Notes under the pieces: generated by a model
Seen by the model: the letters and a program-made list of their open reading frames with translations, nothing else
Told to the model about the DNA's origin: nothing
Databases searched by the model: none
In this document: piece after piece, positions 1,746 to 56,220 of the stretch
Layout: every line of letters begins with the position of its first letter
How positions within the stretch are numbered: position 1 is the first letter of the stretch
Made by a program: the position numbers and the translations under genes
From: a virus
Virus record (IMG/VR): IMGVR_UViG_3300029825_000423
Span: 1-61,329 of that record
Reading direction: 5' to 3' (one strand)
DNA: 61,329 nucleotides

Positions 1746-1860
1746 AAAATATTTTGTGCGGCAATTACAAAGCCACTTTTCTTTTTTGATTGAATAATCA
1801 TATAATACAGATTGGAAAGTTTTAAATTTGATGAGAACCAATATCTTATTGGTGATAATA

Positions 1861-2067
1861 ATGGGATCAACTAAGAACACATTAATGATACAAGCAAAGC
1901 CATATAAGGGCGGGTATAGATTGATAGCAACAAACGGTGATAAGCCGTCTGAAAATTATGTGTATTCAAGCCGCGCCGAAGCATATAAGGCGTGTGCTCA
2001 AATGTATCCGTCGAATAGTTCGTGGAGGGGCAAGAAGGTCACGGGTGGGTTCAGGATAAATCTTTAA
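1861..2067 (+). CDS. Small basic protein, member of the dispersed small-protein family
   Basis: ATG at 1861 follows GGTGATAATA. It contains VYSSRAEAYKACAQMYP, the [FY]-x-[ST]-x(2,3)-A-x(3)-A motif shared with 15571, 24076 and 31509. An oligo-T terminator follows. Confidence 0.5.
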   Translation: MGSTKNTLMIQAKPYKGGYRLIATNGDKPSENYVYSSRAEAYKACAQMYPSNSSWRGKKVTGGFRINL

Positions 2068-2090
2068 TATAGTGTACCATTTCAGTATTT

Positions 2091-2122
2091 GTTTTTTTAT
2101 TTTCTTTTTTATGTTTTTTTCT
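2091..2122 (+). terminator. Oligo-T terminator tract
   Basis: Sequence is gtttttttattttcttttttatgtttttttct, directly after the 2067 stop. Archaeal terminators are T-runs. Confidence 0.4.
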
Positions 2123-2182
2123 CCCCACTTTGCGAAATAATTAAATACAAAGAGTTTCATTTATTCAAGTGGGGGATTTTGA

Positions 2183-2476
2183 ATGGGTTTCATAAAGAAT
2201 GTTTTACCAGTGGTTGCTTTTTTCATAATCGGTGACGTTGCTACAACGCTGTACGCTCTGCAATTGCCAGGGTTATGTGAGACTAATCCGATGTTGCAGT
2301 TTCTTGTAAGTCAACCGATTATTTTCATATTGTCGAAGTGTACGGTGCTTGTTGTTTTGTATGCTCTGTACAAAGGAAGTACCGCAGGGTGGTTTAAGGT
2401 GTATGCCGGTATTCCTGCGGTAGCTGGGTTCTTGTTGTGCGTGAATAACGTTAACTGGATAATGAGCGTTATATGA
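2183..2476 (+). CDS. Integral membrane protein (3 TM; DUF5658-like pattern)
   Basis: Hydrophobic 97-aa ORF with GDVATT..(x)..CETNP, a pattern I recall from DUF5658 archaeal membrane proteins. No search was run. Confidence 0.6.
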   Translation: MGFIKNVLPVVAFFIIGDVATTLYALQLPGLCETNPMLQFLVSQPIIFILSKCTVLVVLYALYKGSTAGWFKVYAGIPAVAGFLLCVNNVNWIMSVI

Positions 2477-3309
2477 GGTGGGTAATGGTAAATAAAATAT
2501 TGTGTATGTTTGCAATGGCTTTGTTATTGTCACATCCGGCTTACGCGGTGAGTGACTGGAAACATGTTTCTGGAAACGTGAACATGAGGACGGGAAACGC
2601 GCTTTCATGCGGCGACTATACGATAAAACTTGTAGACTTTAGCACGACTGACAAAACCGCGCTATTTGAAATTGTATCGACTTCTGGAAAAAAAGAAATT
2701 GCGATTGTTGCTGCAGGAAATTCGTATCTGTTCGGGGACGGCAATTGCAAGATTACGTTCGTGAATTACAAAAACAAAAAAATAAATGTAGCTGTTTATA
2801 TGCGGTTGCGCCCAGTGTTCCGGACTGAAACCGAAACAAAGAAAAGCAATTCCGTTTCGTATACTCACATCACATCAGTTGTTTTCGAGTGCAAAGAGAA
2901 GACGGCAAGTGACGTTTCGATAAAACTTGAATGTGAAAACCTAACACTAAACGGGAAACTGAAGGGTATTAAAATCGGCACTTGCGCAGTTGGGGCAAAG
3001 TCAAAGGCAACGATAAAATATACTCCACTCGAAAACGCTTCGATTATTGCGAGAATTGAGTATAAGGACGCAACCGGTAAAAAATATGAACAGTGTATTG
3101 ACGTAATAAAAAACATACAAATTGTAGAAGAAAGTAAAGAAGTTGCGGCAACTGAAAGCATCGTTGTAAAGAAAACGACGAATGAGAACAACGCAAAGCG
3201 GGTATTTATATGTGCAATTGACGTGGCAATTACGAGGATAACGCTCACCGATGAGCAGAAAGCACAACTTTTGAATATAAGAAATTCGCTTGAAGACAGT
3301 TTAAATTAA
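2473..3309 (+). CDS. Secreted/envelope protein with signal peptide
   Basis: N-terminus is MVNKILCMFAMALLLSHPAYA. The more likely start is ATG 2485, after GAGGTGGGTA. ATG 2473 makes an ATGA overlap with the upstream stop. Confidence 0.7.
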   Translation: MRWVMVNKILCMFAMALLLSHPAYAVSDWKHVSGNVNMRTGNALSCGDYTIKLVDFSTTDKTALFEIVSTSGKKEIAIVAAGNSYLFGDGNCKITFVNYKNKKINVAVYMRLRPVFRTETETKKSNSVSYTHITSVVFECKEKTASDVSIKLECENLTLNGKLKGIKIGTCAVGAKSKATIKYTPLENASIIARIEYKDATGKKYEQCIDVIKNIQIVEESKEVAATESIVVKKTTNENNAKRVFICAIDVAITRITLTDEQKAQLLNIRNSLEDSLN

Positions 3310-3347
3310 ATACTTTAAGAACGTATATAATATCAGGTGATAATGAA

Positions 3348-24237: not shown

Positions 24238-24490
24238 ATTTTAATTTTTACTTTTTTTAAAAACATTTTCAAGAAACATATTAAATTTATTCGTCTATTC
24301 TTATAATATGCTTTTTGATGCGTTTAGTCTATCGGTTGATAGCAAAAAACACATTGTAAAAAAGTGAATTTTTGTTATTTTTCGTTTTTTCTGTTTTTAT
24401 CGTAAATACATTCTTTGTAATTGCCAGAACATTTAGTTATCCCGTTGAAATTGCACATCCCATTTATTGAATGACTACATTTTATCTTTT

Positions 24491-28337: not shown

Positions 28338-28346
28338 GTAATTGCC

Positions 28347-31242: not shown

Positions 31243-31252
31243 AGGCAATAAC

Positions 31253-31441
31253 ATGGTAGACGACGAAATTGTCACTCTCGAAGAAGAAAAACGGAAACTC
31301 GAAAAGGATTATCAGAAAACGGCAAAAGAGTATATCAAGATGAAAGACAATTATCATAACAAAATGACTTCAATCGGGGATCGGGTAAGGGAGATCAACG
31401 CAAGGATCAAGGAGTTAAGACCACCGATTGTGGCTAAGTAA
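31253..31441 (+). CDS. Coiled-coil mini-protein
   Basis: 62 aa (EEEKRKLEKDYQKTAKEYIKMKD). Junction is TGAAGGCAATAACATGG. Confidence 0.55.
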   Translation: MVDDEIVTLEEEKRKLEKDYQKTAKEYIKMKDNYHNKMTSIGDRVREINARIKELRPPIVAK

Positions 31442-32048: not shown

Positions 32049-32710
32049 ATTCTTTAGTACCATTCGGGGGCGGTGACCTACTCTTAAAAGAACACGTTGA
32101 TCACATTGAACTACACGAAGTAGGGAGCCTTAAACGTGCGTGTGATATTGCATACGAACGAAGCAAGCAAACTGAAAATTATAAATGGATCAGAGACAAA
32201 AACAAGCTTTTTCTCCATCTTATGTGGGCGACTGGTGCGAGGGTATCAGACGTTACGGAAATGAACACCACGAAAATAAATTACAGAGAAAAAACAATAA
32301 CCTTTCTGGTCCACAAGAGGAAAAGCAAGAAGGTTAAAACCGGGGGGGAATACTGGCACACAATTGGCTTGGATATGGAAACACTAACTATGTTAATGGA
32401 TTATATACAGACGTGGGAAATTAAAGGATTGCTCTTTCCTTCATTCAAAGGATCGGATAAGGCAATTACAAGGCAAGCAATAAACAAGCTTCTCAATGAG
32501 CTTACAGAACTTGTAGGAATGAGACGTATTCATCCCCACATGTTTCGCCATGGAATTGCCATGCACCTGCAAAGTCAGGGAGTGCCCGCCGAATTAATAG
32601 CTTACCACCTGGCACACAGTTCAACGGCAATTACCTTGAAGACATACGCAAGGATGGACGCGAAGCAGGAAAGAGCAATGTTTGAAAATCTGAATGTGAA
32701 ATTTTGGTAA
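32045..32710 (+). CDS. Tyrosine recombinase/integrase (Xer-like, 221 aa)
   Basis: Catalytic signature present: WATGARVSDV (Arg I), HPHMFRHGIAMHL (H-x-x-R), LAHSSTAITLKTYARM (His, Tyr). Confidence 0.9.
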   Translation: MNSLVPFGGGDLLLKEHVDHIELHEVGSLKRACDIAYERSKQTENYKWIRDKNKLFLHLMWATGARVSDVTEMNTTKINYREKTITFLVHKRKSKKVKTGGEYWHTIGLDMETLTMLMDYIQTWEIKGLLFPSFKGSDKAITRQAINKLLNELTELVGMRRIHPHMFRHGIAMHLQSQGVPAELIAYHLAHSSTAITLKTYARMDAKQERAMFENLNVKFW

Positions 32711-33455: not shown

Positions 33456-33623
33456 ATGGATGAAATAACCACGACAGAGTACCAGCAAGAAATGAAAAAC
33501 CATTTCAGATGCGTTATATTGGATACAAAGTGCATATACAGCAGTTGTGTTTTTTGTGACATTGGAATTGCCTTCAGAAAGGGTATTGAATGGGAACGAA
33601 AAGGAGTGAACAGAAAAAAATAA
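33456..33623 (+). CDS. Cys-containing mini-protein (55 aa)
   Basis: ATG follows GAGGCGATAAC. Confidence 0.45.
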   Translation: MDEITTTEYQQEMKNHFRCVILDTKCIYSSCVFCDIGIAFRKGIEWERKGVNRKK

Positions 33624-36053: not shown

Positions 36054-36894
36054 AGTATTTTTTCTCCCTCTCCTGTATCATCGGAAGCGTCCATTTATTT
36101 TCGAGTATAAATTCAAGTATGTTATAAATACCGTCCCACCCACATACAGATACGTTAATAAATGGGCTTTCAAACTGTTTTTTCACATAGCATACGACCG
36201 GAACACCCATCGCAGCACACTCCATGGCAGAAACACCGTAATAACCTATACGCAATTGATCAATGTATAGGTCACATTTTGCCATTTCCAGCAAAATTTC
36301 TTCGTGTGGCTGTCCTGTAATTGTCTCATACTCGAAGTCGTACTTTTCTTTCAGCTCTGTAATTGCCTCCTCGATATACTTAGTGCCCTTGATTTCCGGA
36401 TTAGTCGGGCAGTGCAATATTCTGAACTTGTGTTCAGAATACGCTTCGCGCTCTTTCCACGGCAATTCCCAATCAATTGCCACGTTTGGTAACCACGTTG
36501 CGTTGGGTACATATTTCAGCAGGTCCGGAGTCGAAACATAAATTATGTCTGCAAGTCCGTTGTACCACGGCAATTGTTTTCCTCGCGCGTCCGATCCATG
36601 GTAATGTATCACAATTTCCTTTCCCAAAAGCTTGAATAATGCAATATCAAGCCCGTTGAAAATTGTTTTTTTGTGGAAATGGATTCTGTCATATTTCGGG
36701 CATAACCACAAATATTTAAACATGTTTTTTACGGACCCGAAATTCTTGCCCTGCAGCAAAAATTTGAAATCAACTGGATAATTTAATTTATTGCCGCAAG
36801 TTATTACGATATCCGACTTATCACAATTTCGTCTATCAATTTCTCTTAATACAACTGGCACGCCTGCAGTATCCCCAACATGAAGAACTTTCAT
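35962..36894 (-). CDS. GT-B fold glycosyltransferase (GT1/GT4-like)
   Basis: C-terminal domain reads KCDLYIDQLRIGYYGVSAMECAAMGVPVVCYV, an E-x7-E-like region. Operon partner of 36891. Confidence 0.8.
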   Translation of the reverse strand: MKVLHVGDTAGVPVVLREIDRRNCDKSDIVITCGNKLNYPVDFKFLLQGKNFGSVKNMFKYLWLCPKYDRIHFHKKTIFNGLDIALFKLLGKEIVIHYHGSDARGKQLPWYNGLADIIYVSTPDLLKYVPNATWLPNVAIDWELPWKEREAYSEHKFRILHCPTNPEIKGTKYIEEAITELKEKYDFEYETITGQPHEEILLEMAKCDLYIDQLRIGYYGVSAMECAAMGVPVVCYVKKQFESPFINVSVCGWDGIYNILEFILENKWTLPMIQEREKKYYEKCKRVLEKTYTEDKSNSKFSQKTNKKRN

Positions 36895-37964
36895 TTTTCA
36901 TTCTCCAAACTTTTATACAAGCTTAATAATTTTTCTTCTTCCCATCCAAACTGTGCGGTCAAGCATTTTCGTGAATATTCGGTACAATATGGAATTGCCT
37001 CTCTAATTGCCTCAACAGACTCTTCCACGTTATCTGGATCTATTAGAATCCCGTAACCTTCGTCTTCAATAAACTGATTTCCTTTCGTTCTGCTGGCAAT
37101 TACAGGAATCCCACTCATTATATATTCAAACGTCTTTGTGCTTCTCGCGGTCTCGTATCTATCGGTTTTCTCATATAGACAGAACCCCCACGAAACATCA
37201 TCAAGGAATTTATTTACCTCACAATGCGGAATTACGCCGCAGTAAGTTACGTGCTCACAGTTCTCGGGTATATCGGTTTTGTCAAATGCCATTCCAGCAA
37301 TCTTATACCGGACATCAGGCACATACTCAGACAATTTCCTGACAATTTCAACGCTTTGTGGGATCTTCCTAAGATTCATCATTCCAACATACCCGAAATT
37401 GCAACCTGACCTTACCTTTTTTGTATATCCCGTTGGATAATTATGGATTATCTGGTTATGTTTTACCTGATTACCCATTTCCTCATCTACTACAATTACC
37501 TTATCTGCAACGTTCTCCATCATAAATTTTTCTGAAACCGTTTCGACAAATTCAATAACATTTGCGAGTTTTTTAAGTCCTCTAGCGTCGAACCTCTCTC
37601 TTATCAGTCTCGGGTAATATTCGTGTCTGTCATAGATTACTTTAGAACCATATAAGAGCTTTAATGCGCTCCCTACGGCAAGAGAAGACGGTTCATGCAC
37701 ATGTACAATGTCTGGTTTCTGTACAAGTCCCGTAAGAAATGCCTTAAAGCAATTTGATATATGCTTTGAATACTTCAATTCGCCTGGATAACAGATTATA
37801 TTTATTCCATCTATCCCCCTATACGAATCTAACGCTTTCACAGCCGTTCCAAGTGCAATAACATTAACATCATATTTCCCACATTCAACAAGCGTTTTTG
37901 CTTCTTTGTGGTAAATTCTATGGTCATACGGTCCGTGTACAGTTGTAAGCATGGCAACTTTCAT
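36891..37964 (-). CDS. Glycosyltransferase family 4-like
   Basis: N-terminus is MKVAMLTTVHGPYDHRIYHKEAKTL. C-terminal domain is STKTFEYIMSGIPVIASRTKGNQFI. Confidence 0.85.
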   Translation of the reverse strand: MKVAMLTTVHGPYDHRIYHKEAKTLVECGKYDVNVIALGTAVKALDSYRGIDGINIICYPGELKYSKHISNCFKAFLTGLVQKPDIVHVHEPSSLAVGSALKLLYGSKVIYDRHEYYPRLIRERFDARGLKKLANVIEFVETVSEKFMMENVADKVIVVDEEMGNQVKHNQIIHNYPTGYTKKVRSGCNFGYVGMMNLRKIPQSVEIVRKLSEYVPDVRYKIAGMAFDKTDIPENCEHVTYCGVIPHCEVNKFLDDVSWGFCLYEKTDRYETARSTKTFEYIMSGIPVIASRTKGNQFIEDEGYGILIDPDNVEESVEAIREAIPYCTEYSRKCLTAQFGWEEEKLLSLYKSLENEK

Positions 37965-39557: not shown

Positions 39558-40991
39558 TCAATTATTTTTCTTTCGAATGTTAATCACCGGTTTATATTCA
39601 ATACTCCTACCAGCTTTACTTTCCTGCCGTTTCTTCTCTGCAATTTCATCGGAATAATACAACGGAGACGGAACTTTCATGCACCGTTCATCCGGACTGC
39701 AGACACAAAGACCCCGCAACGAAACCCCCTTCGGAAAACCCAAGTTATCAATAGCGTTCAGCCTTTCGCATGTCGGCACTTTCATACTTCTATAATAACT
39801 TTCGAATAAATTACTTTTTCTTGCATTCCATCTGTCAGCAAGCATGTTAAACCAATCGAACGCTTCTTCTTCTTCTATACCCATTTGCCCCAAGTATGAA
39901 CAGAACACGGCCAATGCCCTTGTCGCGCCTTCTCCGCATTCATCTAACTCAAACAAGTTTTTCATGCACGGTGCCCATTTTTCATAACCTATCGGTGTTT
40001 CTGACATCTCAACTTCTCTGCCGTCCATCCTGCTTATTGCAGATCTTCTGTTTTTGTAAGAGTGTTCGAGATACGGCTTAAAGACTTTGTTAAGAAATTC
40101 GGTCCCGTCGTCATACTCCATATACCACTTTTCCCCTTTGGCAATTACCGAGTCACTAAGCGGAATTGTCGCCTCTTCAAAGTCTATCTCGATCTTATCC
40201 GGATTCAACGGAACTACAGCATAATCTAAACTCTTATGTACGCTGTAGATTGTCTTAAACACTCTCTGAGAGCCGTTTAGTTGGTCAGGCTTAACTTTAC
40301 CTATATGTTGCGGAAACGCCTTAAAAAACGATTCTCGCATGTCTCCGATGAAGCAGTCAAAGGCGTCTAAGAAAGTCAGTAACATCATGTCCCATTCTTC
40401 GGAATCTCTGAATCTGTCGAAATACTTTTCAAATGCCTTATGATGCAACATTACATATATTCCACCACCCGAATACAAAACGTAAACAGAATTCGGCAAG
40501 TGTTCGCGAAGAATATTTACAAAATACTGCGCCATGTCTTCTACAGCTTGTTTTACATCAGGTGAATGAATATCACATCCATGTTCTTTGTCGATGTCAA
40601 TTCCAAGAGTGTACCCCATAGTATAAGCCCTGCTTAGCATCGGGCCATCGGCTTTGTCCACCTTCTTGTAATCCACGTCATAAATTTCTTTATCGAAAAC
40701 ATTTAAGGTCCAGTACAACGTCCGGCACTCTGTCACCGCATTAAAATAATCTTTTCTGCTCGACAGATCGATTTTTTTCTTTGCTTTCCTGCTTCCCGGG
40801 CGTAGGTTATACCAGTCCATTGAATCTTTTAGCTCCCCCGTTTCCCTGTCAACGTAAGCGCATGGAGTGAATTTCATTCCAGCCCTACTAAAATTCCCAT
40901 CAGTTGAAATCCTTGTAATTGCCTCGACAATTTCAGGACGTTTATAATGTTCTCGTATATCTTTCTGATTAAGCACATTCCCCACCCACAA
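39558..40991 (-). CDS. Archaeo-eukaryotic primase (PriS-like catalytic domain fused to Cys-rich C-terminal domain)
   Basis: Motif I is LGIDIDK and motif II is YSGGGIYVMLHH. The C-terminal region has several Cys (PCMKN, DECGEG, CERL, CVCSPDERC) that could bind a metal or Fe-S cluster. The start is TTG 40991 or GTG 40976. Confidence 0.75.
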   Translation of the reverse strand: MWVGNVLNQKDIREHYKRPEIVEAITRISTDGNFSRAGMKFTPCAYVDRETGELKDSMDWYNLRPGSRKAKKKIDLSSRKDYFNAVTECRTLYWTLNVFDKEIYDVDYKKVDKADGPMLSRAYTMGYTLGIDIDKEHGCDIHSPDVKQAVEDMAQYFVNILREHLPNSVYVLYSGGGIYVMLHHKAFEKYFDRFRDSEEWDMMLLTFLDAFDCFIGDMRESFFKAFPQHIGKVKPDQLNGSQRVFKTIYSVHKSLDYAVVPLNPDKIEIDFEEATIPLSDSVIAKGEKWYMEYDDGTEFLNKVFKPYLEHSYKNRRSAISRMDGREVEMSETPIGYEKWAPCMKNLFELDECGEGATRALAVFCSYLGQMGIEEEEAFDWFNMLADRWNARKSNLFESYYRSMKVPTCERLNAIDNLGFPKGVSLRGLCVCSPDERCMKVPSPLYYSDEIAEKKRQESKAGRSIEYKPVINIRKKNN

Positions 40992-41460
40992 GGCAATTAC
41001 AGAATTCTACATTTTGATTAAGCACGTTGTAAAAACGTTCTTCGTATGTCTTCTTTCCGTGAATTTCAGCTATCTTGTGTATAGCACAGTGACATTCGTG
41101 GCAGAGTGGCAGAAGGTTCGCAATGTCATTTGTTCCCCCTTCCGCGCGTGGTACAATGTGGTGTATCTCTAAATTTTCAGGATTTCCACATATAGCACAT
41201 TCTCCCCCGAAAATGTATATTACGCGCTTCTTCATTACTCCCCTAACATCCCGGTATTTGTACCCTTTGTGCTCGTTCTTCCGGTTGAGAATCAGTTGAT
41301 CACTTTCTTTTCTGTTCTCGATATAATTCCTGTAATGGAATCTCACTTTATTGAGTGACGTTCCTATGTTGAACCGACACAAAAACATTTTCGATTGTTC
41401 GACGCTTGTTTCTTTCTCGTTCACTGATTTTCCCCCAAAAATCACTTGAACTTTAAACAA
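40969..41460 (-). CDS. HNH endonuclease
   Basis: Contains CAICGNPENLEIHHIVPRAEGGTNDIANLLPLCHECHCAIH. The likely start is GTG 41424, after GGGGGAAAATCA. Confidence 0.85.
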   Translation of the reverse strand: MFKVQVIFGGKSVNEKETSVEQSKMFLCRFNIGTSLNKVRFHYRNYIENRKESDQLILNRKNEHKGYKYRDVRGVMKKRVIYIFGGECAICGNPENLEIHHIVPRAEGGTNDIANLLPLCHECHCAIHKIAEIHGKKTYEERFYNVLNQNVEFCNCLVGGECA

Positions 41461-41704: not shown

Positions 41705-41878
41705 TTATCCCTCCATTTTTTTAATAAAGTAATTGCCGAACGAAATTGCATCCACGGTTAAAAACAGGTCACCGGTTAGCCATATACGGTTTGCGCATGC
41801 ACAACGATCCACCGCGACGAATGCCGTCCCAGCAACACCGAACACGACCCCGATAAACCCGATTACAGCACTGAGCAT
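41705..41878 (-). CDS. Membrane mini-protein (57 aa)
   Basis: TAATG overlap with the upstream gene. Translation begins MLSAVIGFIGVVFGVAGTAFVAVDRCACANRIW. Confidence 0.45.
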   Translation of the reverse strand: MLSAVIGFIGVVFGVAGTAFVAVDRCACANRIWLTGDLFLTVDAISFGNYFIKKMEG

Positions 41879-42237: not shown

Positions 42238-43813
42238 TGGCTTCTTTGAACCACTCTCTTAACTTATTGCTGTGTAACCTTATAAACTTTTCGAATTCTG
42301 GCTCTGTAATAATTGTGTTAGTGACCTTGTCATCGTTTCGGTTTATCCTTCCGTACTGCTGCATCAGATCGTTTCCGCATTCGGTAAACGACCAATCGCC
42401 ACCGAGATAATGCATTTTTGCCTTAACCAGTGGATCGGTTGGATTTGGTCTTTTCAGGAACGTTATGACATTATTTTTTATATTGAGTTCTGGTAAGTCA
42501 ATTCCTCGCCCCATATTTACGGCAATTAATACTTGCCAAGGTTCAGGCGAATTCTTAAATTTCTCAATTACGTCTTTTCTCAGAGTCGCGCCTTCTATAC
42601 TGTCCTCGCTACATTCTCTGGTTTGAACAATTGGCACAACAAATCCCCTGCTTTGCCTGACAATTTCCTGCCCTAACTCCGAAGCTACGGCATAGCTCGG
42701 GGCATGAACGATGGTTTTTCCAGGCATCAGCCATCTAAGATTCCCTTGCCTCAAAAACTCCGCGAGCTTTGGTATTGTCTCCGCACGGTTCTTTAAGCTC
42801 AACGACCCAACCGGAATATGCTTTATCGGTCTTATGTCTGCAGGAAACGGGCTCTTAACTTCTAGGAATTCCCATCCTTCCAATTTTTCAGGAGTCGCAG
42901 ACATGAGAATAACGGTTCTATCATCAGTTTTAAGCGCGTCTTTTATGAATCTATTTATCGAAACCGGTTCAAACGTCGTGGATTTTTCATTATTGTGTTT
43001 TACAATCCATTTTTCTTGATTAACTGTAAAATCATTCAGTAAGGCCCGGATCTTGTATATCTGACTTTCCAAGTATTTTTTCTTTTTAATGTTCTCTGGA
43101 CTTATATTTAAATGGTTCAATTCATACTCTAACTTTTCCGCTAAATCTTCAAGACATGCCAATTGCGAATCCCAATCGAAATCCCAATACTCCGGAATTG
43201 TCACTGTCCGGAACATTCTAATAAAAGGTTCTATGTAATCGGATTCGTCAACTATCAATACATCAGGATCGTTTGTGATACCCATCTGCAGGAGAGTAAA
43301 GTTTGTGTTTCCGATGTCTGACGTCTTAAATGCTCTCATAACGGCTTTGTAATTACACTCCTTACAAGGACAGTCCAGCTCGCACGCTTTACAGTTTCGT
43401 TTTTTATACATTATTTTCCGGTCCGCGTCGTAATCCATTGAACAAATTTTCCCAGCACAAAACCCATTATCACAGTTTTCCAGCACTCCCCCACGAAGCT
43501 CATAACGGGCCTTACACATGTAATTAGATTTTCCTTTCAGTGTGATCAGGGGCTTTCCGTTTTTATCATTTGAGTATTCTTCGTACTGATCTACCAACGT
43601 ATTCAACGGGGACGTGATAAGCGTTTTCTTGCCAAGTTTTGCAAAGTAATTGCCAATCATTTTCGATACTGCACTTTTGCCGGACCCGGTTGGAGCACAG
43701 ATTATAAATTTCGTTTTTCCTTCGGTTATTCCAGCTTCCAACCAGTTTGCAATTTCGAGTTGTTGTTCGCGGTACGTTTTTATTTTACCCGTTTCTGGAA
43801 AACATTCTATCAA
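42179..43813 (-). CDS. XPD/Rad3-like SF2 helicase with Fe-S cluster domain
   Basis: Motif I is CAPTGSGKS. A Cys cluster (CKARYE..CDNGFCAGKIC) lies between motifs I and II. Motif II is VDESDY, followed by LMSATP and QQYGRINR. Confidence 0.85.
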   Translation of the reverse strand: MIECFPETGKIKTYREQQLEIANWLEAGITEGKTKFIICAPTGSGKSAVSKMIGNYFAKLGKKTLITSPLNTLVDQYEEYSNDKNGKPLITLKGKSNYMCKARYELRGGVLENCDNGFCAGKICSMDYDADRKIMYKKRNCKACELDCPCKECNYKAVMRAFKTSDIGNTNFTLLQMGITNDPDVLIVDESDYIEPFIRMFRTVTIPEYWDFDWDSQLACLEDLAEKLEYELNHLNISPENIKKKKYLESQIYKIRALLNDFTVNQEKWIVKHNNEKSTTFEPVSINRFIKDALKTDDRTVILMSATPEKLEGWEFLEVKSPFPADIRPIKHIPVGSLSLKNRAETIPKLAEFLRQGNLRWLMPGKTIVHAPSYAVASELGQEIVRQSRGFVVPIVQTRECSEDSIEGATLRKDVIEKFKNSPEPWQVLIAVNMGRGIDLPELNIKNNVITFLKRPNPTDPLVKAKMHYLGGDWSFTECGNDLMQQYGRINRNDDKVTNTIITEPEFEKFIRLHSNKLREWFKEAIVDGGKKREDYWGNHTRKR

Positions 43814-44120: not shown

Positions 44121-44354
44121 TTAGAAGGTTTCCAGTTCGCGATACCGGCGAACCAGAATATACAGAGATAAAACAACAAACGGCACCGCAAGCGCAGGAA
44201 GATAAACCGGAGCACCACCAACATAACACATTATTGTATAAATGACACCGGCCGATGTAATTGCCAATATCTTATTCGGAATTGACGATCTTTCTTTCTT
44301 CATACGCTCAACCATTTCGTCGTAAGTCTCGTTACATGCAACATTTTCACTCAT
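44121..44354 (-). CDS. Membrane protein (2 TM)
   Basis: ATG 44354 follows AAGAGGTAATAAC. Confidence 0.5.
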   Translation of the reverse strand: MSENVACNETYDEMVERMKKERSSIPNKILAITSAGVIYTIMCYVGGAPVYLPALAVPFVVLSLYILVRRYRELETF

Positions 44355-45039: not shown

Positions 45040-45678
45040 TCACCCCAATAATGTATTTATCGTGTCATAATCGCTTTCTCTAAGGTGCGCACAAGCGATA
45101 TAATGATAAATCCACCCGGGCATTACTCCGACTTTTTCAGCGACATATTCAAGCAGTTTGTAAGCTCCGTACATATCGCTTGGAATTGCGATACAACATT
45201 CATTTGAACGGAAGTAATCGATTGCGTCAAGTCGTCCATTTCTTATAATGAACTGCAGTGAAGCCCAGCAAGGCTTTTCGTTTTCCGTGAAATTGTCACA
45301 CGGTTGAAATATCGGCATATACGCACGCCTAGTGTTCGGGTCTGTTTTCAAGAGCTCAATTATTCTGTCAAGCTGTTTCGATCTCCTTAGTCTTTCCCCG
45401 TATGCGTAATCGAAAGCGTCCCCTTTTTTCATAGCGATATGGCAGATTAAAAGGCCCTGTGCAAAGTCGTAAGCCTGACGTTCGACGGATTTTTCGGCTT
45501 TGAGATTGCCGGACATGACAATTACCTCGAGTCCGATAATTTCCCGTGTAACTTCCCCTCGCTGATCTACGATTCTTTCCCCATTGTTCCAGATCTCTCT
45601 TACGATTTTTTCTCTTGCGTCGGTTATGTCCTTCGCAATTATTCTGTTTTGGCTTGATGAAAAAACACGATGAGACAT
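45040..45678 (-). CDS. Thymidylate-synthase-fold pyrimidine C5 (hydroxy)methylase; predicted cytosine-specific
   Basis: By-eye alignment to E. coli ThyA: YGERLR / DPNTRRAYMPIFQP (DPDSRRIIVSAWN), EKPCWASLQF (APCHAFFQF, catalytic Cys), YFRSNE (YQRSCD), IPSDMYG (LPFNIAS, Asn177 replaced by Asp), ACAHL (GDTHL). The start sits at junction GTGAGGCAATTACAATG. Confidence 0.75.
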   Translation of the reverse strand: MSHRVFSSSQNRIIAKDITDAREKIVREIWNNGERIVDQRGEVTREIIGLEVIVMSGNLKAEKSVERQAYDFAQGLLICHIAMKKGDAFDYAYGERLRRSKQLDRIIELLKTDPNTRRAYMPIFQPCDNFTENEKPCWASLQFIIRNGRLDAIDYFRSNECCIAIPSDMYGAYKLLEYVAEKVGVMPGWIYHYIACAHLRESDYDTINTLLG

Positions 45679-45688
45679 TGTAATTGCC

Positions 45689-46659: not shown

Positions 46660-47475
46660 TTAATTTTCTATGCCGCGAACCGTATTGTAAATCTTAGTCC
46701 CTTTGTCTTTGCCAGCTAGGGTTTTCATCTCTTCTAAGTCCATGTTCACAAACTCGAACACGGTAAATTTTCTTTTGCTTAACATCTTTGAAATTGTCTT
46801 CGCTCCGAGTCCTGGCACATTACAAAGCATTTTCAACACAGTGTCTTCATTGCATGGTTTTTTAATTGAAAGTGTTGTATGACAGTATTTAGTAATATAA
46901 TTTAATAAGTCTTCCAGCACAACTGGAAACATATCTTCTCTTTCAAACTGCCTTACGTGTATCCCGAGTTGCCGCCATGTTTCAAGGTGACCTGTTAATT
47001 TGTCAAACCTCAATACGCTTGCGTCCTCATTCGCGAAGTTGCGTACATAAAAAAACTTTTCTTTCTGCATAATGGTTAGGCGACCTTCGACGAATAGTGC
47101 GACATCTTCAAAAATATTGTATGCTTCTGGCAATTTCCAAGTCAAATCATCAATTGATCCGGCGATATCGTTAAGTGTTTTGTATTCGACCCCGATGTCT
47201 ACATACTTTCCCTGGTAAACCCCTTGTATCCAGTAATCGCACCTTTCAAGATTATCAATCATGACCTCTGCCCCTCTCTGCATGAAATAATTTGCGACCT
47301 GCCAGATTCTCGGGCGCTGTTTTGTGAGCCGGATAATTTCGTCATTCGAATATTCAGAAATCAGCTTGCCTTTGATTATTGCGCTTGGAACTTTCCGATT
47401 TTGCACCAACGCAGATTGCTCCCGTGTATCGCAGGTAATCAAAAGTTCGCTGAATTTCTGTTCAAGGTCTGCCAT
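46660..47475 (-). CDS. XPF/Mus81/Hef-type ERCC4 nuclease with C-terminal HhH
   Basis: Contains CDTREQ, CDYWIQG, GVEYKTLNDIAGSIDD (ERK-type motif) and LCNVPGLGAKTISKML (helix-hairpin-helix). Confidence 0.75.
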   Translation of the reverse strand: MADLEQKFSELLITCDTREQSALVQNRKVPSAIIKGKLISEYSNDEIIRLTKQRPRIWQVANYFMQRGAEVMIDNLERCDYWIQGVYQGKYVDIGVEYKTLNDIAGSIDDLTWKLPEAYNIFEDVALFVEGRLTIMQKEKFFYVRNFANEDASVLRFDKLTGHLETWRQLGIHVRQFEREDMFPVVLEDLLNYITKYCHTTLSIKKPCNEDTVLKMLCNVPGLGAKTISKMLSKRKFTVFEFVNMDLEEMKTLAGKDKGTKIYNTVRGIEN

Positions 47476-47484
47476 GTAATTGCC

Positions 47485-48607: not shown

Positions 48608-49377
48608 TATACCGCCCTGATAACCGAATCATCCCCAACTCTAGGAGCACATAGCATCACATAATTTTCTGACTTCTCGCCGTTCCCATCTATTCTCACA
48701 GGGTTATCGACGTTTATACTCACAGTGCACGTTTTAACGAGTTTCCCCAGTGCTTTCATGTGTTTTCCAGTGAGGATATCAATAGAAAACATAGATCTCT
48801 GTTCATATCCAGGGGAGACAAAGTTACTGATTTTATTTCTCAGTTCAACTATTACGTTATCTCCATACAACACATGATCGGCAATTACAATATTATTCCC
48901 GAATGCCCCAATTACCTCAAGATCAGATATCAATTCCTTGTAACATATTTCGAATGACGTTTTAAATTCGATTTTCGGAATTCTTGGTATTCTATCATCG
49001 GGTTCAATTGGAATCGCGAACGTTGCGTCAACACATGTAAACACCGCACGTTTTCTATCGTCCCCACCTTCAACACTTCCATACAGATTTTTCGGCTTTT
49101 CTGGATCAACTTTCTCGAGCGTTACGAAATTACCACGCAGTTTTTTAACGACACGTTCCAGTTTGCGGACATCTACCGTTATGTCCGTATCAAGCGGTAC
49201 ATTATATTCACGGAAAGCGGTCTTTGGAATTGTCGCACCAAATATAAACACGTTTGCTGGATCAACCGTAAAAATTCTCATTTCATCTGGCCGAAGACAC
49301 ATTGTAACTTCATCTCTCATGTTTGCAAGAACACCAAGCAGGTTTTTAAAATAGCTAAGATCCATTGTAAATATCAT
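48607..49377 (-). CDS. PCNA sliding clamp homologue 2 (divergent)
   Basis: ATG follows GGGGGAAAACAA. The protein reads FKNLLGVLANMRDEVTMCLRPDEMRIFTVDPANV..ITVDVRKLERVVKKL.. with a C-terminal YVMLCAPRVGDD, matching the archaeal PCNA LLAPRVEE end. Confidence 0.7.
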   Translation of the reverse strand: MIFTMDLSYFKNLLGVLANMRDEVTMCLRPDEMRIFTVDPANVFIFGATIPKTAFREYNVPLDTDITVDVRKLERVVKKLRGNFVTLEKVDPEKPKNLYGSVEGGDDRKRAVFTCVDATFAIPIEPDDRIPRIPKIEFKTSFEICYKELISDLEVIGAFGNNIVIADHVLYGDNVIVELRNKISNFVSPGYEQRSMFSIDILTGKHMKALGKLVKTCTVSINVDNPVRIDGNGEKSENYVMLCAPRVGDDSVIRAV

Positions 49378-52234: not shown

Positions 52235-53824
52235 ATGGACTTAATAATTGATCCAGAATTTAGAGATCTGATTCCTCCACTGACTGAAGAGGAATATAAC
52301 AGTCTTGAAGAAAATCTTTTAACTAACGGGTTTAACCCTGCCTTCCCTGTAATTGTCTGGAAAGGACAGAACATTATAGTGGATGGGCATAACCGTTACG
52401 GAATTTGCCAGAAACACGGAATTGCCTTTGATTACATCGAGCAGGAGTTCGCTTCGAGGTACGATGTTAAACAAGAAATGTACAAGATACAGTTTGATAG
52501 AAGAAACATGAATAGTAGAACTAAAACTTATCTTGTAGGTAAAAGATATTTAATGGAAAAAATGGAAGAAGGAAATCCAAATGGGTTCGGTGCAATCAAC
52601 CAACGGGCGCAAAATGCGCCCGTTGGTAGAACAAGAGAAAAAATAGCTGCACAACTAGGAATAAATCACTCGACTGTGCTAAGAGCAGCCGAATTTGCGC
52701 TTGCGGTAGATAAAATCGTCTCTGTAACTGGAATAAAAGTAAACGATATCCTAGTCGGAAAGATAAAAGACCCGATGGATGATATTAAAGACCTCGCTAG
52801 AAACCTAGATGATGTAATAAAAGACGCAATTTACAGGGTATTATCCGGTGAAAACCTAACTTTAAAAATGGCTCTCGCGGCAATTACAAGAGAAGAACTC
52901 GAAAGAAAAACAAGAGAAGCCGAAAAGAAAAGAAAGCAAATGGAAGAAGAATTTAAAAAATCAAGAGAAGAAGAAGACCAGAAAGAAAGGGAAAGACTCA
53001 GACAAGAAAGAGAAAACAAACTCGCGCAGGAAAGAGAACGTATAGAAAAGGAGAAAGAAGAACAAGAACAGCGCAGACGCGCAGAGATCGAAAAAGAAAT
53101 TGAAAAGAGAAGGAAAGAAGCAGAGGAAAGAGCAAAGCACGCAGAAGAACGAGAAAAGTTAAGAAAGGATGCAGAAGAACATGAAAGAATCGAAAAAGCA
53201 AAACTCGAAGCTGAAATTAAAAGACTACAAGAAATCAAACAAAAGAAACTTGAATCAGCTATGCTTGAACAAAAACGAATGGATGAAGAAATACTCAGAA
53301 AGGCAAGGATTGAACGGGAAAAGCAAGACAGAGAAATAATTGAAAAGACAGTAAAGGTCAGCGTTCCAGTAACAGATTACGACCAGTACATAAAAGCGGC
53401 TTATACAATAATGGGGGAAATAACACTTAATGCTTGCAGACCAAAAAAGGCAGACAACGCAGACAACATTTACATAATAAACACTCAAATCGTACACAAT
53501 GATCCAGAAACACTTAATCAAAATTGGATTGGTAAAGTGTGGCTTGACCTGCTTGATTCAGAAAAAGATTCAAAGTGTTACATTGAGAAATTGGTATCTC
53601 GGTTTGTCGAAGGGGGAATAACTGAAGCCTTTGTGATTGCCAGAAACACAACTGATTCCGAATGGTTTAAGCTCTGTTCACAGAAAGCAAGCGCGGTTGT
53701 ATTTCCAACAAAGACAATGACAGGAAAGTTAAAAAGCCATGCTCTTATTTACTTCGGGGACAAGGCAGAAACCTTTATGAAAGAATGTGAAAAGTTCGGA
53801 TGGGGGACAATATTAAAAAAATAA
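52235..53824 (+). CDS. ParB N-terminal domain / HTH / long charged coiled coil / degenerate Dam-like domain fusion
   Basis: ParB/Srx-type segment DLIPPLTEEEYNSLEENLL..IVDGHNRY, then HTH REKIAAQLGINHSTVLR. About 150 aa of E/K/R-rich coil follow. The C-terminal NWIGKVWLDLLDS..FVIARNTTDSEWF..ALIYFG resembles phage Dam (W.G..W.NPPYS..PARTDT.WF), but with NPPY replaced by DLLD. Confidence 0.75.
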   Translation: MDLIIDPEFRDLIPPLTEEEYNSLEENLLTNGFNPAFPVIVWKGQNIIVDGHNRYGICQKHGIAFDYIEQEFASRYDVKQEMYKIQFDRRNMNSRTKTYLVGKRYLMEKMEEGNPNGFGAINQRAQNAPVGRTREKIAAQLGINHSTVLRAAEFALAVDKIVSVTGIKVNDILVGKIKDPMDDIKDLARNLDDVIKDAIYRVLSGENLTLKMALAAITREELERKTREAEKKRKQMEEEFKKSREEEDQKERERLRQERENKLAQERERIEKEKEEQEQRRRAEIEKEIEKRRKEAEERAKHAEEREKLRKDAEEHERIEKAKLEAEIKRLQEIKQKKLESAMLEQKRMDEEILRKARIEREKQDREIIEKTVKVSVPVTDYDQYIKAAYTIMGEITLNACRPKKADNADNIYIINTQIVHNDPETLNQNWIGKVWLDLLDSEKDSKCYIEKLVSRFVEGGITEAFVIARNTTDSEWFKLCSQKASAVVFPTKTMTGKLKSHALIYFGDKAETFMKECEKFGWGTILKK

Positions 53825-53833
53825 ATTGGGAGA

Positions 53834-54997
53834 GTGGAACAATTGACAGTATTTAAAAAAATAATCGGAAGTAGATGTATTGTAATTGTGGTTGGCAATC
53901 ACAAAGGGGGTTGCGGAAAAACAACCACATCTTTTGGAATTGGGGTAAATGCCAGTAAACAAGGTAAAAGAGTACTTTTCATAGACAATGACCAACAGGG
54001 GACGCTAGGAAAGCAATTCAAGATAGACGGAAACAACAAGAAATACAAAGACCATAGATTTTCAAAGATATACGAATCAATGTCAAACATAACCGGAGAA
54101 ATACCAGTAGTACCTTACACAATACACTTTAACAAAAACACAGGAGGTTCAATATCAATTCTGCTTGGAGACGCAGACTTAAAAGATATAGTTGAAAAAG
54201 CAGAAGAGTACTTCGGCGGAGAGGCGATTGTAACAGAAAAGTTCAGGACAATTATGAATGTTTACATGCAATACTTCGATTATATAATATTCGACACCAC
54301 ACCAATTGTAGACAAAATAAAAAGCTGTAAACACTCTTTGAGTATTGCTAACAATGTATTCATTCCATTTGATGAAATAGACGCAGTTGATGAAATAAAT
54401 CAGACCAGAACCGCAATAAAAGCAAACAGCAAACATCAGCCTAACATAAGGTTTGTATGCACAAAATACACGGTTGACTACATCGAGGAAGCAAGAGAAT
54501 TTAACAGAAGATGTTTAGAAAATAAACTTCCAGTTCCAGAGAAGCCAGTAAAATTTAAACATTATCCTTGGACACCAGGCAGAGACGAGAAACGATGTAC
54601 CAATTACAGGTTTATGCTAAAAACATTTCCTAATAACATGTGTAAAATCGGAATCCCATTTAAAGTAGACATCGAGAGGCACACGTACTTAGGATCAAGC
54701 AAAGAAAACAGAGCAATAATAGACGAAATGTGCAAAGATCTTTTACTTTATGCGTCTTCAAGTGCAAAGGAATTTTGTGAAAACCTATGTGATGATGATG
54801 TTTGGAGTAAAAAACTTGATATGTTAAACGGTTACGTTGGAATTGTTCGAGATATGAAAATAGAAAAAATGGACATTGGATTAAACGAAGTTCTCGGTAC
54901 TACATTCGATGAAGGAAACTATTTACATGTAGAATTTGAAAAAGAAGCAGTAAACGAAAGAGCTATTTTAGAACGTAGAGCTAGATTTGATAGGTGA
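53834..54997 (+). CDS. parA: ParA/Soj-type partition ATPase
   Basis: Deviant Walker A is VVGNHKGGCGKTTTS, followed by FIDNDQQGT and IIFDTTP. Confidence 0.85.
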   Translation: MEQLTVFKKIIGSRCIVIVVGNHKGGCGKTTTSFGIGVNASKQGKRVLFIDNDQQGTLGKQFKIDGNNKKYKDHRFSKIYESMSNITGEIPVVPYTIHFNKNTGGSISILLGDADLKDIVEKAEEYFGGEAIVTEKFRTIMNVYMQYFDYIIFDTTPIVDKIKSCKHSLSIANNVFIPFDEIDAVDEINQTRTAIKANSKHQPNIRFVCTKYTVDYIEEAREFNRRCLENKLPVPEKPVKFKHYPWTPGRDEKRCTNYRFMLKTFPNNMCKIGIPFKVDIERHTYLGSSKENRAIIDEMCKDLLLYASSSAKEFCENLCDDDVWSKKLDMLNGYVGIVRDMKIEKMDIGLNEVLGTTFDEGNYLHVEFEKEAVNERAILERRARFDR

Positions 54998-55093
54998 GTG
55001 ACAAACACTCTAAATAAAATTTTTGAAAACAGTAAATATTAAATAAGTTCAGTGACATATATAACAGTTACCTAAAAAAGATTTGTGGAGAGA

Positions 55094-55111
55094 GGGGGGA
55101 CTTAACCCCCC
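55094..55111 (+). terminator. GC hairpin after parA
   Basis: GGGGGG-acttaa-CCCCCC. Confidence 0.4.
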
Positions 55112-55193
55112 GAATGGAGACAAAACAAATGACGAAGCACGTCTTATAATATATTATATGTCGTTCTTCCTATAAATAACTTATTGTTGGGAC

Positions 55194-55949
55194 ATGGATA
55201 CTGTTAGTAAAATCGGAGGGAGCATGAGCAAGAATGAAATATTTAAACAGGAAGCACAGATTTCAAACGAAGAATTTGAACAAGACATTGAGATATTCTA
55301 CCGTGGGATTGTCGGGATTACAAAGAAGTTAGGGCAAACATCAAGCGACGGCGCAAGATGGGTATTCGATATGTCATTTAGAGGAAAGAGAAGAGAAATC
55401 ACCATTGATAACGTCGCGCTTATGATGGGGCCAACCGCCTTTAACAACCTGTTTAAGTCATGGTTCGGTATTCAGTTGCCGTACCTACTCCGGAGAAAGC
55501 CAGCGAAGGGTGACGTCAATTACTGGGACAAGTTTCAGCAGGTAATTGAAGAAATGTGTACCGAAGAAGATCCAGAAGATAGTACGGAATGGATTGAGGC
55601 AAGCAGGTTAATAGAGAATATAGCAAAGTTCAACATAACAGATGACAAAAAGGCATGGTATGATACAACTTCTTCCGATAGGTGCCTTTTGAGAACGGAA
55701 GATAAAGATGGCGTGGTACACTATTGCGTTAAGCCAGACTGTGTGGCCACTGTAATGAAAGACATTGGAATAAAAATACCAATCGGTAAAATGGGAGAGA
55801 CTTTAAACATTCGAAACATGAAAAGGAAAACAAACCCGGCAATCAGGGTAGGACAGAAGGTAACGAAAGCATGGTGGATTACGGCGGAGTGTATAGACGC
55901 AGTTACACCAGACGAAAACGACGACGATAGCGACAATGTGAATTTGTAA
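55194..55949 (+). CDS. Hypothetical protein adjacent to iterons (candidate iteron/centromere-binding protein by position)
   Basis: 251-aa ORF, with a likely start at ATG 55224 after GGAGGGAGC. Its stop codon lies inside the first GTAAC iteron. The function is inferred from position only. Confidence 0.6.
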   Translation: MDTVSKIGGSMSKNEIFKQEAQISNEEFEQDIEIFYRGIVGITKKLGQTSSDGARWVFDMSFRGKRREITIDNVALMMGPTAFNNLFKSWFGIQLPYLLRRKPAKGDVNYWDKFQQVIEEMCTEEDPEDSTEWIEASRLIENIAKFNITDDKKAWYDTTSSDRCLLRTEDKDGVVHYCVKPDCVATVMKDIGIKIPIGKMGETLNIRNMKRKTNPAIRVGQKVTKAWWITAECIDAVTPDENDDDSDNVNL

Positions 55950-56220
55950 CTGGGTGTAACGGGGTGTAACCGGTGTGTAACGGGTCTTGTAACGGGTCTA
56001 AAATCGACTTTGTAATTGCCACACAACGACAACGGGGGAACTCAGAACACTACTTTTTTGTGTGTTTTTTCTCCTTGTAACGCGCGCACGGGGGGTAAAA
56101 AATTTTTTCCTGACCCCCCGTTACACCCGTTACACCGGTTACATTCGACTGAAAGTATTTTCCCGCTGTCGAAAATTTGTAACGGGTCTGGAGGCATCGA
56201 CCCGTTACACCCCGTTACAA
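55944..56220. repeat. Iteron cluster: 12 copies of TGTAACGGG / CCCGTTACA (origin of replication or partition centromere)
   Basis: Five direct copies have GTAAC at 55946, 55956, 55966, 55977 and 55989 (10-12 bp spacing), plus one at 56077. Three inverted copies have GTTAC at 56120, 56129 and 56138. A perfect 11-bp inverted pair lies at 56178-56188 / 56199-56209, with one more copy at 56214. An A6T6 tract flanked by G6/C6 lies at 56090-56119. Confidence 0.85.

Follow-up and report, generated by a model that had tools for sequence, protein, structure and literature searches.

A dispersed 13-bp DNA word under nucleotide-level selection in a 61-kb archaeal mobile element and its relatives

The IMG/VR virus record IMGVR_UViG_3300029825_000423, whose entire 61,329 nucleotides were analyzed and are called the window here, raises the question why one short word, GGCAATTAC, recurs throughout it, mostly inside unrelated genes. 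A reading made from the letters alone (the sequence-only reading) had drawn attention to this word and likened its density to that of uptake sequences, Chi, FtsK-orienting polar sequences (KOPS), and Noc- or ParB-type binding sites. We asked whether the excess is real, at what level the word is maintained, and what could read it. The word proved to be real, selected at the nucleotide level, independent of orientation, absent from the DNA of the host family apart from a few copies, and retained with turnover among relatives of the element; its presence also does not follow the iterons or the ParB and ATPase genes.

The exact 9-mer occurs 22 times (10 plus, 12 minus), matching the sequence-only reading at every position and strand, while dinucleotide shuffling gave an expectation of 0.42 (maximum 3 in 100 shuffles). 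When k-mers were ranked against an order-3 Markov model, as had been proposed there, the word came first at k = 8-10 and its sub- or superstrings led at k = 7 and 11; the weaker related k-mers GACAATTCC, GACAATTAC, GGCAATTCC, and GCAATTGC ranked behind it. The extended 13-mer GGCAATTACAAAG is exact at the five places claimed for it, 1760, 22800, 24413(-), 27894(-), and 56008(-), and with at most one mismatch it is found at 20 sites versus 0.12 expected. The by-eye list of one-mismatch versions had to be amended: 52879 carries two mismatches, and five copies had been overlooked, at 27744(-), 30024(-), 36355(-), 45676(-), and 53894(+). The palindrome GCAATTGC is over-represented as had been said, with 10 copies counted (1.06 expected) instead of about 11.

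We defined a degenerate site set as all 10-mers with at most one mismatch from GGCAATTACA. This set comprises 66 sites, where a Markov null fitted to the window itself gives 8.3. Position +12, which lies outside the search pattern, is G in 50 of the 66, so that the full consensus reads GGCAATTACA-A-R-G; there is little information beyond positions -1 to +12, and a weaker ATTAA tail extends a minority of sites. The consensus GGCAATTACAARG is asymmetric. It has no dyad beyond the AATT core, although the G2/C9 pair is also self-complementary; the dyad is broken at positions 1, 3, 8, and 10, and the palindromic form accounts for 10 sites only. Overall, there is about one site per kb over the whole circular element, in either orientation.

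Could the word follow from the use of certain codons, dipeptides, or amino acids, or from protein domains that recur? The exact copies are distributed as 12 sense, 5 antisense, and 5 intergenic, and 11 of the 12 sense copies use a single frame, GCA-ATT-AC, which is the Ala-Ile-Thr (AIT) reading noted earlier. In the element, no codons for the respective amino acids are used more often than GCA, ATT, and ACA, and the site at 58006 sits in the conserved helicase motif VAITR, all of which would fit such an origin. AIT is moreover the most over-represented tripeptide in the proteome (21 vs 5.0 expected), and Val-Ile-Ala (VIA), the in-frame reading of the reverse complement, ranks third (16 vs 5.3). 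However, AIT is encoded as GCAATTACA in 13 of its 21 occurrences, where codon usage alone would lead to about 1.6 (calculated from the codon table). The codon-preserving shuffle that had been suggested as a check left counts far below those observed: with synonymous codons shuffled and the proteins kept, the exact 9-mer appeared in coding sequences 0.96 times in sense and 0.41 times in antisense orientation, and with codons permuted within genes 0.28 and 0.09 times, compared with the actual 12 and 5. These codon-aware shuffles never went above 5 sense or 3 antisense copies. The very existence of intergenic and antisense copies also speaks against a coding origin.

The gene for NrdD is informative in this respect. 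The encoded protein is 72-76% identical to the chromosomal NrdD of Methanosarcina species, which indicates a Methanosarcina-type host, and its gene contains three copies of the word, none of which is present in any of 14 host orthologues. The copies are thus derived, and the corresponding amino-acid replacements fall at variable positions. Tripeptide bias, codon shuffles, and NrdD replacements therefore agree with the earlier proposal that selection acts on the nucleotide string and not on the proteins. The host background, which the sequence-only reading had also wanted to see checked, was nearly free of the word: chromosomal loci from 58 Methanosarcinaceae genomes, of which the element's own host may not be one, held 4 copies in 998,638 bp. 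This amounts to 0.04 per 10 kb in chromosomes of similar GC content versus 3.6 per 10 kb in the element, a roughly 90-fold difference. Host background, codon shuffles, and NrdD orthologues together refute the coding by-product, to which we leave practically no probability. Methanosarcina as host genus of the element family is further supported by a remnant in the M. mazei chromosome CP009509.1 (L120:7670-10909; relatives are named by locus handles such as this one), which consists of an integrase, three small open reading frames (ORFs), and a homologue of the DnaA-like ATPase of the window (62% identity).

The sequence-only reading had also described the word as co-oriented with transcription, with about 17 of the 22 copies on the sense strand of the local gene. 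On these grounds one might suspect a polar signal that is read while DNA is transcribed or replicated; examples would be Chi, KOPS, an ops-like element, or an elongation block of the stoperator type. The figure of 17 is about right as a count, but it includes the 5 intergenic copies, which had been assigned to neighboring genes by eye. The degenerate sites are placed similarly (36 sense, 18 antisense, 12 intergenic; n = 66), so that 36 of 54 intragenic sites point with transcription, and a hand count found 10 of the 12 intergenic ones co-oriented with the neighboring genes. As a property of the element, however, co-orientation did not survive comparison with the codon-aware nulls, against which the enrichment of antisense copies equals or exceeds that of sense copies: 5/0.09 versus 12/0.28 for the exact 9-mer under codon permutation, and 18/0.97 versus 36/3.68 for 10-mers with at most one mismatch. 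The observed sense:antisense ratio of 2.0-2.4 compares with 2.3-3.8 in these nulls, and antisense enrichment ranges from 12- to 55-fold. A sense excess arises in the nulls too because the coding strand is rich in purines, as is the word. Among the co-oriented intergenic sites, five have a fixed orientation because they are start-proximal and contain a GAGG Shine-Dalgarno-like tetramer. Replication polarity is weak as well. With the origin placed at 56.1 kb, 14 of 22 exact and 43 of 66 degenerate sites follow the leading strand (64-65%), and the best of all possible origin/terminus pairs yields 16 of 22 and 46 of 66 (70-73%).

Enrichment in both orientations means that the word is selected as double-stranded DNA, which counts against an RNA or polar signal. 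With antisense copies equally enriched we rejected an RNA-level or transcription-polar function, and we regard a polar signal of any kind as having hardly any likelihood. A ribosome-binding-site consensus alone was rejected too, as only about 6 of the 66 window sites are start-proximal. Chi and KOPS (or the related SpoIIIE recognition sequences, SRS) are strongly leading-strand-skewed and enriched in the host chromosome. Our word resembles them in being short, asymmetric, and over-represented, and the element encodes SF1 and SF2 helicases as well as nucleases, but the analogy drawn earlier fails on the low polarity and the lack of host enrichment. No RecBCD/AddAB- or FtsK-type reader was evident among the encoded proteins; only UvrD-like and XPD-like helicases and an ERCC4-like nuclease were seen.

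We then considered conservation, which the sequence-only reading had named as a mark of function. Relatives were found with the UvrD-like helicase as marker. All those with a helicase 76-95% identical to that of the window carry the word:

L090: 17 sites, null 1.8.
L091 / L118: 21 sites, null 3.6.
L092: 9 sites in 5 kb.
L093: 4 sites in 5.0 kb.
L094: 2 sites in 3.2 kb.
L095: 14 sites.

The G at +12 recurs in 17/21 sites of L091, 11/14 of L095, 8/9 of L092, and 4/4 of L093, with only 7/17 in L090, and the preferred ending drifts, being ...ACAGAG in L091 and ...ACAAAG in the window. At about 78-85% nucleotide identity, window sites were retained in 9 of 10 cases in L095, 6 of 7 in L092, and 8 of 12 in L091. 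Identical 10-mers made up 6/10 and 6/12, compared with 20% of random aligned 10-mers (P = 0.006 and 0.019). Retention of sites is thus above the neutral rate, and it is accompanied by turnover, as each relative genome has private sites. The arrangement of sites at the origin and the helicase start is shared by the window, L092, and L095, and partly by L091.

More distant elements differ among themselves. In L096 the helicase is 41% identical, the proteins shared with the window are 37-50% identical, and nucleotide alignments with the window are limited to 129 and 37 bp, neither of which holds an L096 site. Even so, 8 sites were counted in the 16.7 kb of L096, with GGCAATTA present 7 times versus 0.68 expected. 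The word was missing at similar distance in L081, L084/L122, L099, L104, L105, L112, L119, L121, and the M. mazei chromosomal remnant. L087 has a dispersed word of its own, GTCACT(R)A, with 61 copies in 22 kb (L087:1-22037) versus 9.3 expected; in coding sequences there are 33 sense copies versus 2.6 and 20 antisense copies versus 3.8, usually read as Val-Thr-Asp/Glu/Asn. Lineage-specific words therefore recur in this element family. L087 itself is an 82-kb relative whose UvrD-like helicase is 38% identical and whose ParB-like protein is fused to an MT-A70 methylase. Another kind of repeated sequence was seen in L081 and L084, which encode a primase-helicase and a family A polymerase. Here, about 10 genes per 14-22 kb have the near-invariant start context GGTGGTATAaATG (for example L081:9991-10003 and 11589-11601), a consensus of Shine-Dalgarno sequence plus spacer and not a dispersed intragenic word.

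Within the window, strong sites are concentrated in the replication/early half: the 22.75-58.1 kb region holds 16 exact 10-mers and 30 one-mismatch sites, compared with 1 and 19 in the rest of the element (Fisher P = 0.013), and the exact 9-mer is found nowhere between 3234 and 22799. The IS607-type insertion (58311-60135) has no site at all, and four sites lie within 500 bp of the iteron arrays; the sequence-only reading had noted both the empty insertion and the clustering around the iterons. Intergenic DNA holds 12 of the 66 sites while making up 10% of the genome. About 6 sites occur in stop-to-start junctions as tgaGGCAATTACAtgg, 9-10 nt ahead of the start codon, and 3 are found at the helicase promoter. 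The principal sites are as follows:

1760..1772, plus: exact 13-mer GGCAATTACAAAG, intergenic.
3225..3237, plus: exact 9-mer core, sense, AIT in a 278-residue ORF.
22800..22812, plus: exact 13-mer, sense, KAITKS in a 505-residue ORF.
24413..24425, minus: exact 13-mer, intergenic.
26124..26136, minus: core site in NrdD (KAITVIK; host KAELTIK), made by three amino-acid replacements.
27744..27756, minus: palindrome-core variant GGCAATTGCAAAG in NrdD, from replacement of host V[DE]IAKEA by EAIAKET.
27894..27906, minus: exact 13-mer in the variable NrdD N-terminus (KAITKS), missing from the 14 host orthologues.
28334..28346, minus: core site at a stop-to-start junction, tgaGGCAATTACAtgg, at the ATG of a 46-residue ORF.
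28592..28604, minus: one-mismatch site GGCAATCACAtgg, start codon 9 nt on.
31244..31256, plus: one-mismatch site GGCAATAACAtgg, start codon 9 nt on.
32461..32473, plus: core site in the tyrosine-recombinase gene, sense.
32626..32638, plus: second core site in the tyrosine-recombinase gene, sense.
33560..33572, minus: one-mismatch site GGCAATTCCAatg, start codon 10 nt on.
36355..36367, minus: core site, sense (EEAITE), in a 310-residue ORF.
37095..37107, plus: core site, antisense, read as VIA.
40140..40152, plus: core site, antisense (VIA), in a 477-residue ORF.
40911..40923, minus: core site, inverted pair with 40992 over the junction of the HNH and 477-residue ORFs; same in L091.
40992..41004, plus: core site, partner of 40911; same in L091.
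41725..41737, minus: core site.
43642..43654, minus: core site in a helicase gene, sense, other frame (GNY).
44253..44265, minus: core site, sense (LAITS).
45676..45688, minus: core site GGCAATTACAATG where the thymidylate-synthase gene begins.
47472..47484, minus: core site at a gene junction, tgaGGCAATTACAtgg, start codon 9 nt on.
48880..48892, plus: core site, antisense (VIA).
52879..52891, plus: core site, sense (AAITRE), in the 532-residue ParB-like ORF.
55940..56220: putative replication origin with inverted arrays of the iteron TGTAACGGG / CCCGTTACA, a different repeat family.
56008..56020, minus: exact 13-mer with an inverted iteron array of the putative origin on either side; kept in L095 and L092.
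56295..56307, plus: GGCAATAACAAAG, with a TATA-like TTTTTATAT 8 nt downstream; kept in L092 and L095.
56456..56473, plus: long form GGCAATAACAAAGATTAA, 45 nt before the start of the UvrD-like helicase gene; L091, L092, and L095 have it at the corresponding position.
56506..56518, plus: GACAATTACAAAG at helicase codons 2-6; identical in L091, L092, and L095.

The peptide assignments made from sequence were correct for KAITKS, which occurs in both NrdD (27894) and the 505-residue ORF (22800), and for AAITRE in the ParB-like ORF. The EEAITE copy had been placed in a glycosyltransferase, but the 310-residue ORF that contains it has no Pfam match, the glycosyltransferase being the adjacent 357-residue ORF.

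What, then, could the word be for? It is probably read by a protein: that some trans-acting DNA-binding factor recognizes it seems likely to us. A fuller proposal, which we favor tentatively and rate slightly below an even chance, is that GGCAATTACA-A-R-G serves a sequence-specific double-stranded-DNA-binding factor as its recognition site, with the conserved copies serving as operators and the scattered copies as secondary sites. (This and the other likelihoods expressed here are our judgements and were not computed.) The factor would bind the 13-bp asymmetric word in either orientation as double-stranded DNA, and the word would be maintained at the DNA level strongly enough to change amino acids. 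The sites between the iteron arrays, upstream of the TATA-like box, and at -45 and +5 of the UvrD-like helicase gene would form an operator-like set for the replication module. The remaining copies, in coding sequences and stop-to-start junctions, might then load, titrate, or coat the element DNA, giving a genome-wide occupancy network as with repressor/stoperator sites or DnaA boxes. Such a factor may act in the regulation or silencing of replication and early genes, and its gene may lie on the element, or several elements of one host may have the factor in common.

Several observations weigh against this proposal. Most sites (54/66) lie inside genes, in places that do not readily suggest operators, and no copy was found in the main divergent promoter region (50.9-51.75 kb). 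Sites are not clustered, with 7 neighbor distances below 100 bp versus a Poisson expectation of about 6.7 (hand count). L096 lacks a copy at its own origin or helicase promoter, and the presence of the word in this diverged element together with its absence from elements with similar replication or virion genes fits no sampled gene. Finally, Pfam and PHROGs scans of approximately 65 ORFs, which left many small ORFs without an assignment, revealed no clear repressor-type helix-turn-helix (HTH) protein, and no reader was identified.

The contrast of about 90-fold with host DNA and the orientation-independent enrichment would also be consistent with genome-identity or encapsidation tags, by which a virion-associated or condensing protein would pick element DNA for packaging, compaction, or protection. 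Among the window proteins we detected no terminase, portal, or HK97-type capsid protein, and an 87-residue capsid-like protein with two transmembrane segments suggests a virion type whose mode of genome selection is not understood. In addition, a Lys/Arg-rich ORF of 80 residues in the structural module (15571-15813) was, across the sampled loci, the only window protein exclusive to motif-positive lineages (95% identical in L118, 43% in L096). However, its AlphaFold model (mean predicted local distance difference test score, pLDDT, 81) has a generic ferredoxin-like fold with a best template modeling (TM) score of about 0.57 to PII-like proteins and no DNA-binding relative, and we rejected it as the reader. 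In the structural half, a stretch of 19.5 kb is almost devoid of exact copies and strong sites are concentrated elsewhere, for which a packaging tag offers no reason; conserved copies at the origin and promoter would not be predicted, and L119, L121, and L122 share the virion module without having the word. We consider tags of this kind unlikely. In a bolder version, the word would act as a "viral self" code that is read in trans and is common to unrelated co-resident archaeal viruses or plasmids of one host, here the window clade and L096, and it would mark mobile-element DNA for selective condensation, encapsidation, or protection. We think this slightly less likely still. If it were true, other lineages would use other words (GTCACTRA in L087), and the code would be a double-stranded-DNA counterpart of the dispersed packaging signals of single-stranded RNA viruses and a new genome-recognition principle for archaeal virions without terminase.

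The enzymes of the element suggest another possibility, namely that the word is the target of a modification or nicking enzyme that densely marks or nicks the genome. A C5 methylase and an HNH endonuclease are encoded, homologues of the 532-residue protein are fused to Dam or MT-A70 methylases, and L087 combines such a fusion with a dispersed word of its own, so that the C5 methylase, the HNH endonuclease, or the ParB-methylase of relatives could be candidates. Site-specific nicks at consensus words occur in T5 and phiKMV-like phages. On the other hand, recognition sites of such enzymes are normally avoided or neutral instead of about 50-fold enriched, and C5 methylases do not typically recognize asymmetric sites as long as 13 bp. 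The 10 plus and 12 minus copies show no strand restriction, unlike phage nick sites, and there was no link between these genes and the presence of the word. We judge this explanation improbable.

The turnover of sites between relatives and the lack of copies in the recently arrived insertion sequence (IS) are features that could also result from molecular drive of the uptake type, in which transfer, uptake, or recombination prefers word-bearing fragments without benefit to the element. Uptake signal sequences (USS) of Haemophilus and DNA uptake sequences (DUS) of Neisseria are 9-13-bp words that occur about once per kb in both orientations and fill the chromosome of the competent species. The word resembles them in density, in occurring in either orientation, in its use of the cheapest frames and variable protein positions, and in being missing from recently acquired DNA. 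The uptake-sequence analogy nevertheless breaks down, as USS and DUS saturate the recipient chromosome while our word is near-absent from the 58 Methanosarcinaceae genomes and confined to mobile elements. USS are not known for copies that stay fixed at an origin and a promoter, where sites of our word are kept more often than neutrality predicts, and the uneven spread of strong sites also speaks against drive. We accordingly see drive as a quite improbable account.

A ParA gene adjoins that of the 532-residue protein (pair at 52226-54997), a homologue of which is named "ParB N-terminal domain-containing" by NCBI, and four sites lie within or beside these genes with four more at the origin. The word might thus represent centromere-like or Noc-like sites for this pair. 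Known parS and Noc-binding sites (NBS) are 16-bp palindromes, with multiple dispersed sites for one protein. Dispersed multiple sites and a ParA gene are what the element has in common with these systems, but our site is asymmetric, the palindromic GCAATTGC form being a minority. Moreover, over the approximately 21-28 kb compared for each relative, the close relatives L091 and L095 have the word but no ParB-like or ParA gene in the syntenic position (260 bp vs 3.2 kb), and L081 and L084 have both genes (48-62% identity) and no word. The link to ParB-like/ParA was rejected on these grounds, the Noc/ParB analogy of the sequence-only reading falls with it, and we regard this explanation as very improbable.

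With a DNA-binding factor still the favored kind of reader, other candidates were considered. The origin iterons are CCCGTTACA in the window and L095, CCGAGACA in L091, GGGACAG in L090, and ACTACGGAC in L096. Iterons vary in this way while the dispersed word stays constant, and the iteron-binding Rep (probably the 251-residue protein) is therefore not the reader. Identity of iteron and word specificity was rejected for the same reason, despite a common TTTGTAA. As a separate observation, CCCGTTACA or CCCGTACA iterons recur in relatives (L095, L099, L103, L109, L112, and others) whose 251-residue protein is only about 30% identical, while the closer relatives L090 and L091 use other iterons, so iteron specificity does not follow overall relatedness. 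The DnaA-like AAA+ ATPase (7371-8297) was rejected as reader, as L121, which lacks the word, encodes an ATPase of 64% identity whose C-terminal tail is of the same kind; the L096 ATPase has a divergent tail, yet the word is present. The C-terminal 70 or so residues of this ATPase are variable and give a sub-threshold HTH match (HTH_WhiA, 22.8 bits), and BLAST coverage falls to about 73-75% in Methanosarcina chromosomal copies. PDB sequence searches with the ATPase and the 251-residue protein returned nothing useful. Use of the host origin recognition box (ORB) was rejected as well, since the Methanomicrobia ORB consensus, TCCA[GC]T[GT]GAAA..GGGGT (PMC4164010), is unrelated to the word. A role as recombination linker at mosaic boundaries was also rejected, with 2-6 block ends near sites versus 2.4-8.9 expected.

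In form, the closest known system is the operator/stoperator network of Cluster A mycobacteriophages such as L5 and Bxb1, in which a monomeric repressor binds 20-30 copies of an asymmetric 13-14-bp site with lineage-specific motifs (PMC9283540, PMC6550527). The likeness extends to the site (13-14 bp, asymmetric, without dyad, in tens of copies), the temperate-type genome of about 50-60 kb (with an integrase here), a word that differs between lineages and drifts slightly between relatives, and, for a minority of the copies, placement at a promoter or in the narrow junctions from one gene to the next. Most Cluster A stoperators occupy brief gaps between genes, with a striking preference for the direction of transcription, and they lose their function on reversal (PMC9283540, PMC6550527). 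This orientation rule failed here, where the ratios of 12:5 and 36:18 are no more than coding constraints predict. Further differences are that 54 of 66 sites are intragenic, that no repressor homologue was found among the ORFs scanned, and that an archaeal host has another transcription machinery.

DnaA boxes are asymmetric 9-mers at origins, promoters, and titration loci, and they stand beside the iterons of many bacterial plasmids. They offer a second comparison, with an asymmetric word that has a copy among the origin iterons, others in a replication-gene promoter, and more scattered both ways. The differences are that the ORB consensus is unrelated, that the element's own DnaA-like AAA+ protein does not track the word, and that density and over-representation are far higher here. 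By the tests that were run, the word belongs to none of the Chi/KOPS, parS/NBS, and DnaA-box/ORB classes.

Near-identity searches of phage and plasmid collections gave no match, and an IMG/VR search with the 16-mer TGAGGCAATTACATGG returned 10 contigs, each with a single chance match. In the part of the literature covered, among papers matching the 9-mer or its reverse complement, the word was not described as a motif of archaeal mobile elements. We know of no dispersed selected word of such kind described for an archaeal virus or plasmid, and to our knowledge this would be the first dispersed recognition-site network in an archaeal mobile element. Selected dispersed words have revealed trans-acting readers that organize a whole replicon, as with stoperators, DnaA boxes, KOPS, Chi, and USS. 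The present word was strong enough to rewrite a host-derived enzyme (NrdD); elements that have diverged deeply share it, and a sister lineage has another in its place. With a 13-mer as bait its reader could be fished out directly, and the word could be used as a metagenome tag for this Methanosarcina element group.

As to the element itself, a 61,357-bp counterpart of the same sequence was present in a fermentation metagenome, and its gene order crosses the window ends, so that the window represents a complete circular or circularly permuted element. The two assemblies are mutually circularly permuted, and the element is circular or terminally redundant, with a length of about 61.3 kb. The window ends cut a glycosyltransferase gene, whose 219-residue ORF (60561-61220) has 365 residues in the permuted contig (L085:18327-19424). 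Genes for replication and nucleotide metabolism encode NrdD, thymidylate synthase, PCNA, and the XPD-like and UvrD-like helicases. Others encode the ERCC4-like nuclease, the HNH endonuclease (40969-41460), the C5 methylase (29788-30741), the small tyrosine recombinase, ParA and its ParB-like neighbor, glycosyltransferases, two giant proteins, and the capsid-like protein. Using the 505-residue protein as query, we found no relatives in IMG/VR viral contigs, and its exact sequence was missing from the assembly collection.

The 477-residue protein (39558-40991), the 251-residue protein (55194-55949), and the UvrD-like helicase (56501-58087) travel together in L096, L099, L104, L105, and L112 at 29-41% identity, and the latter two are also found in L087. 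The three look like one replication module, although Pfam recognized no polymerase or primase domain in any of them. The IS607-type insertion, a serine recombinase plus TnpB-like OrfB at 58213-60168 of the window, is 96.6% identical to L091:1761-3716, where it lies inverted at another genomic position. The surrounding genomes are only about 75-80% identical, and the IS therefore appears to have been recently mobile between or within elements. Near-identical stretches 501 bp apart in the ORF of the 1450-residue giant protein (17021-17030 and 17522-17531; …tttc[ga]caGACAATTACAtgg…ga[ag]gg[ct]aaat) suggest a tandem repeated domain. Lastly, the palindromes CTGCAG (56 vs 27.5 expected) and GAGCTC (30 vs 11.6) are both over-represented in the window, and CTGCAG is enriched in several relatives too (L087, L088, L099, L109, and L118).

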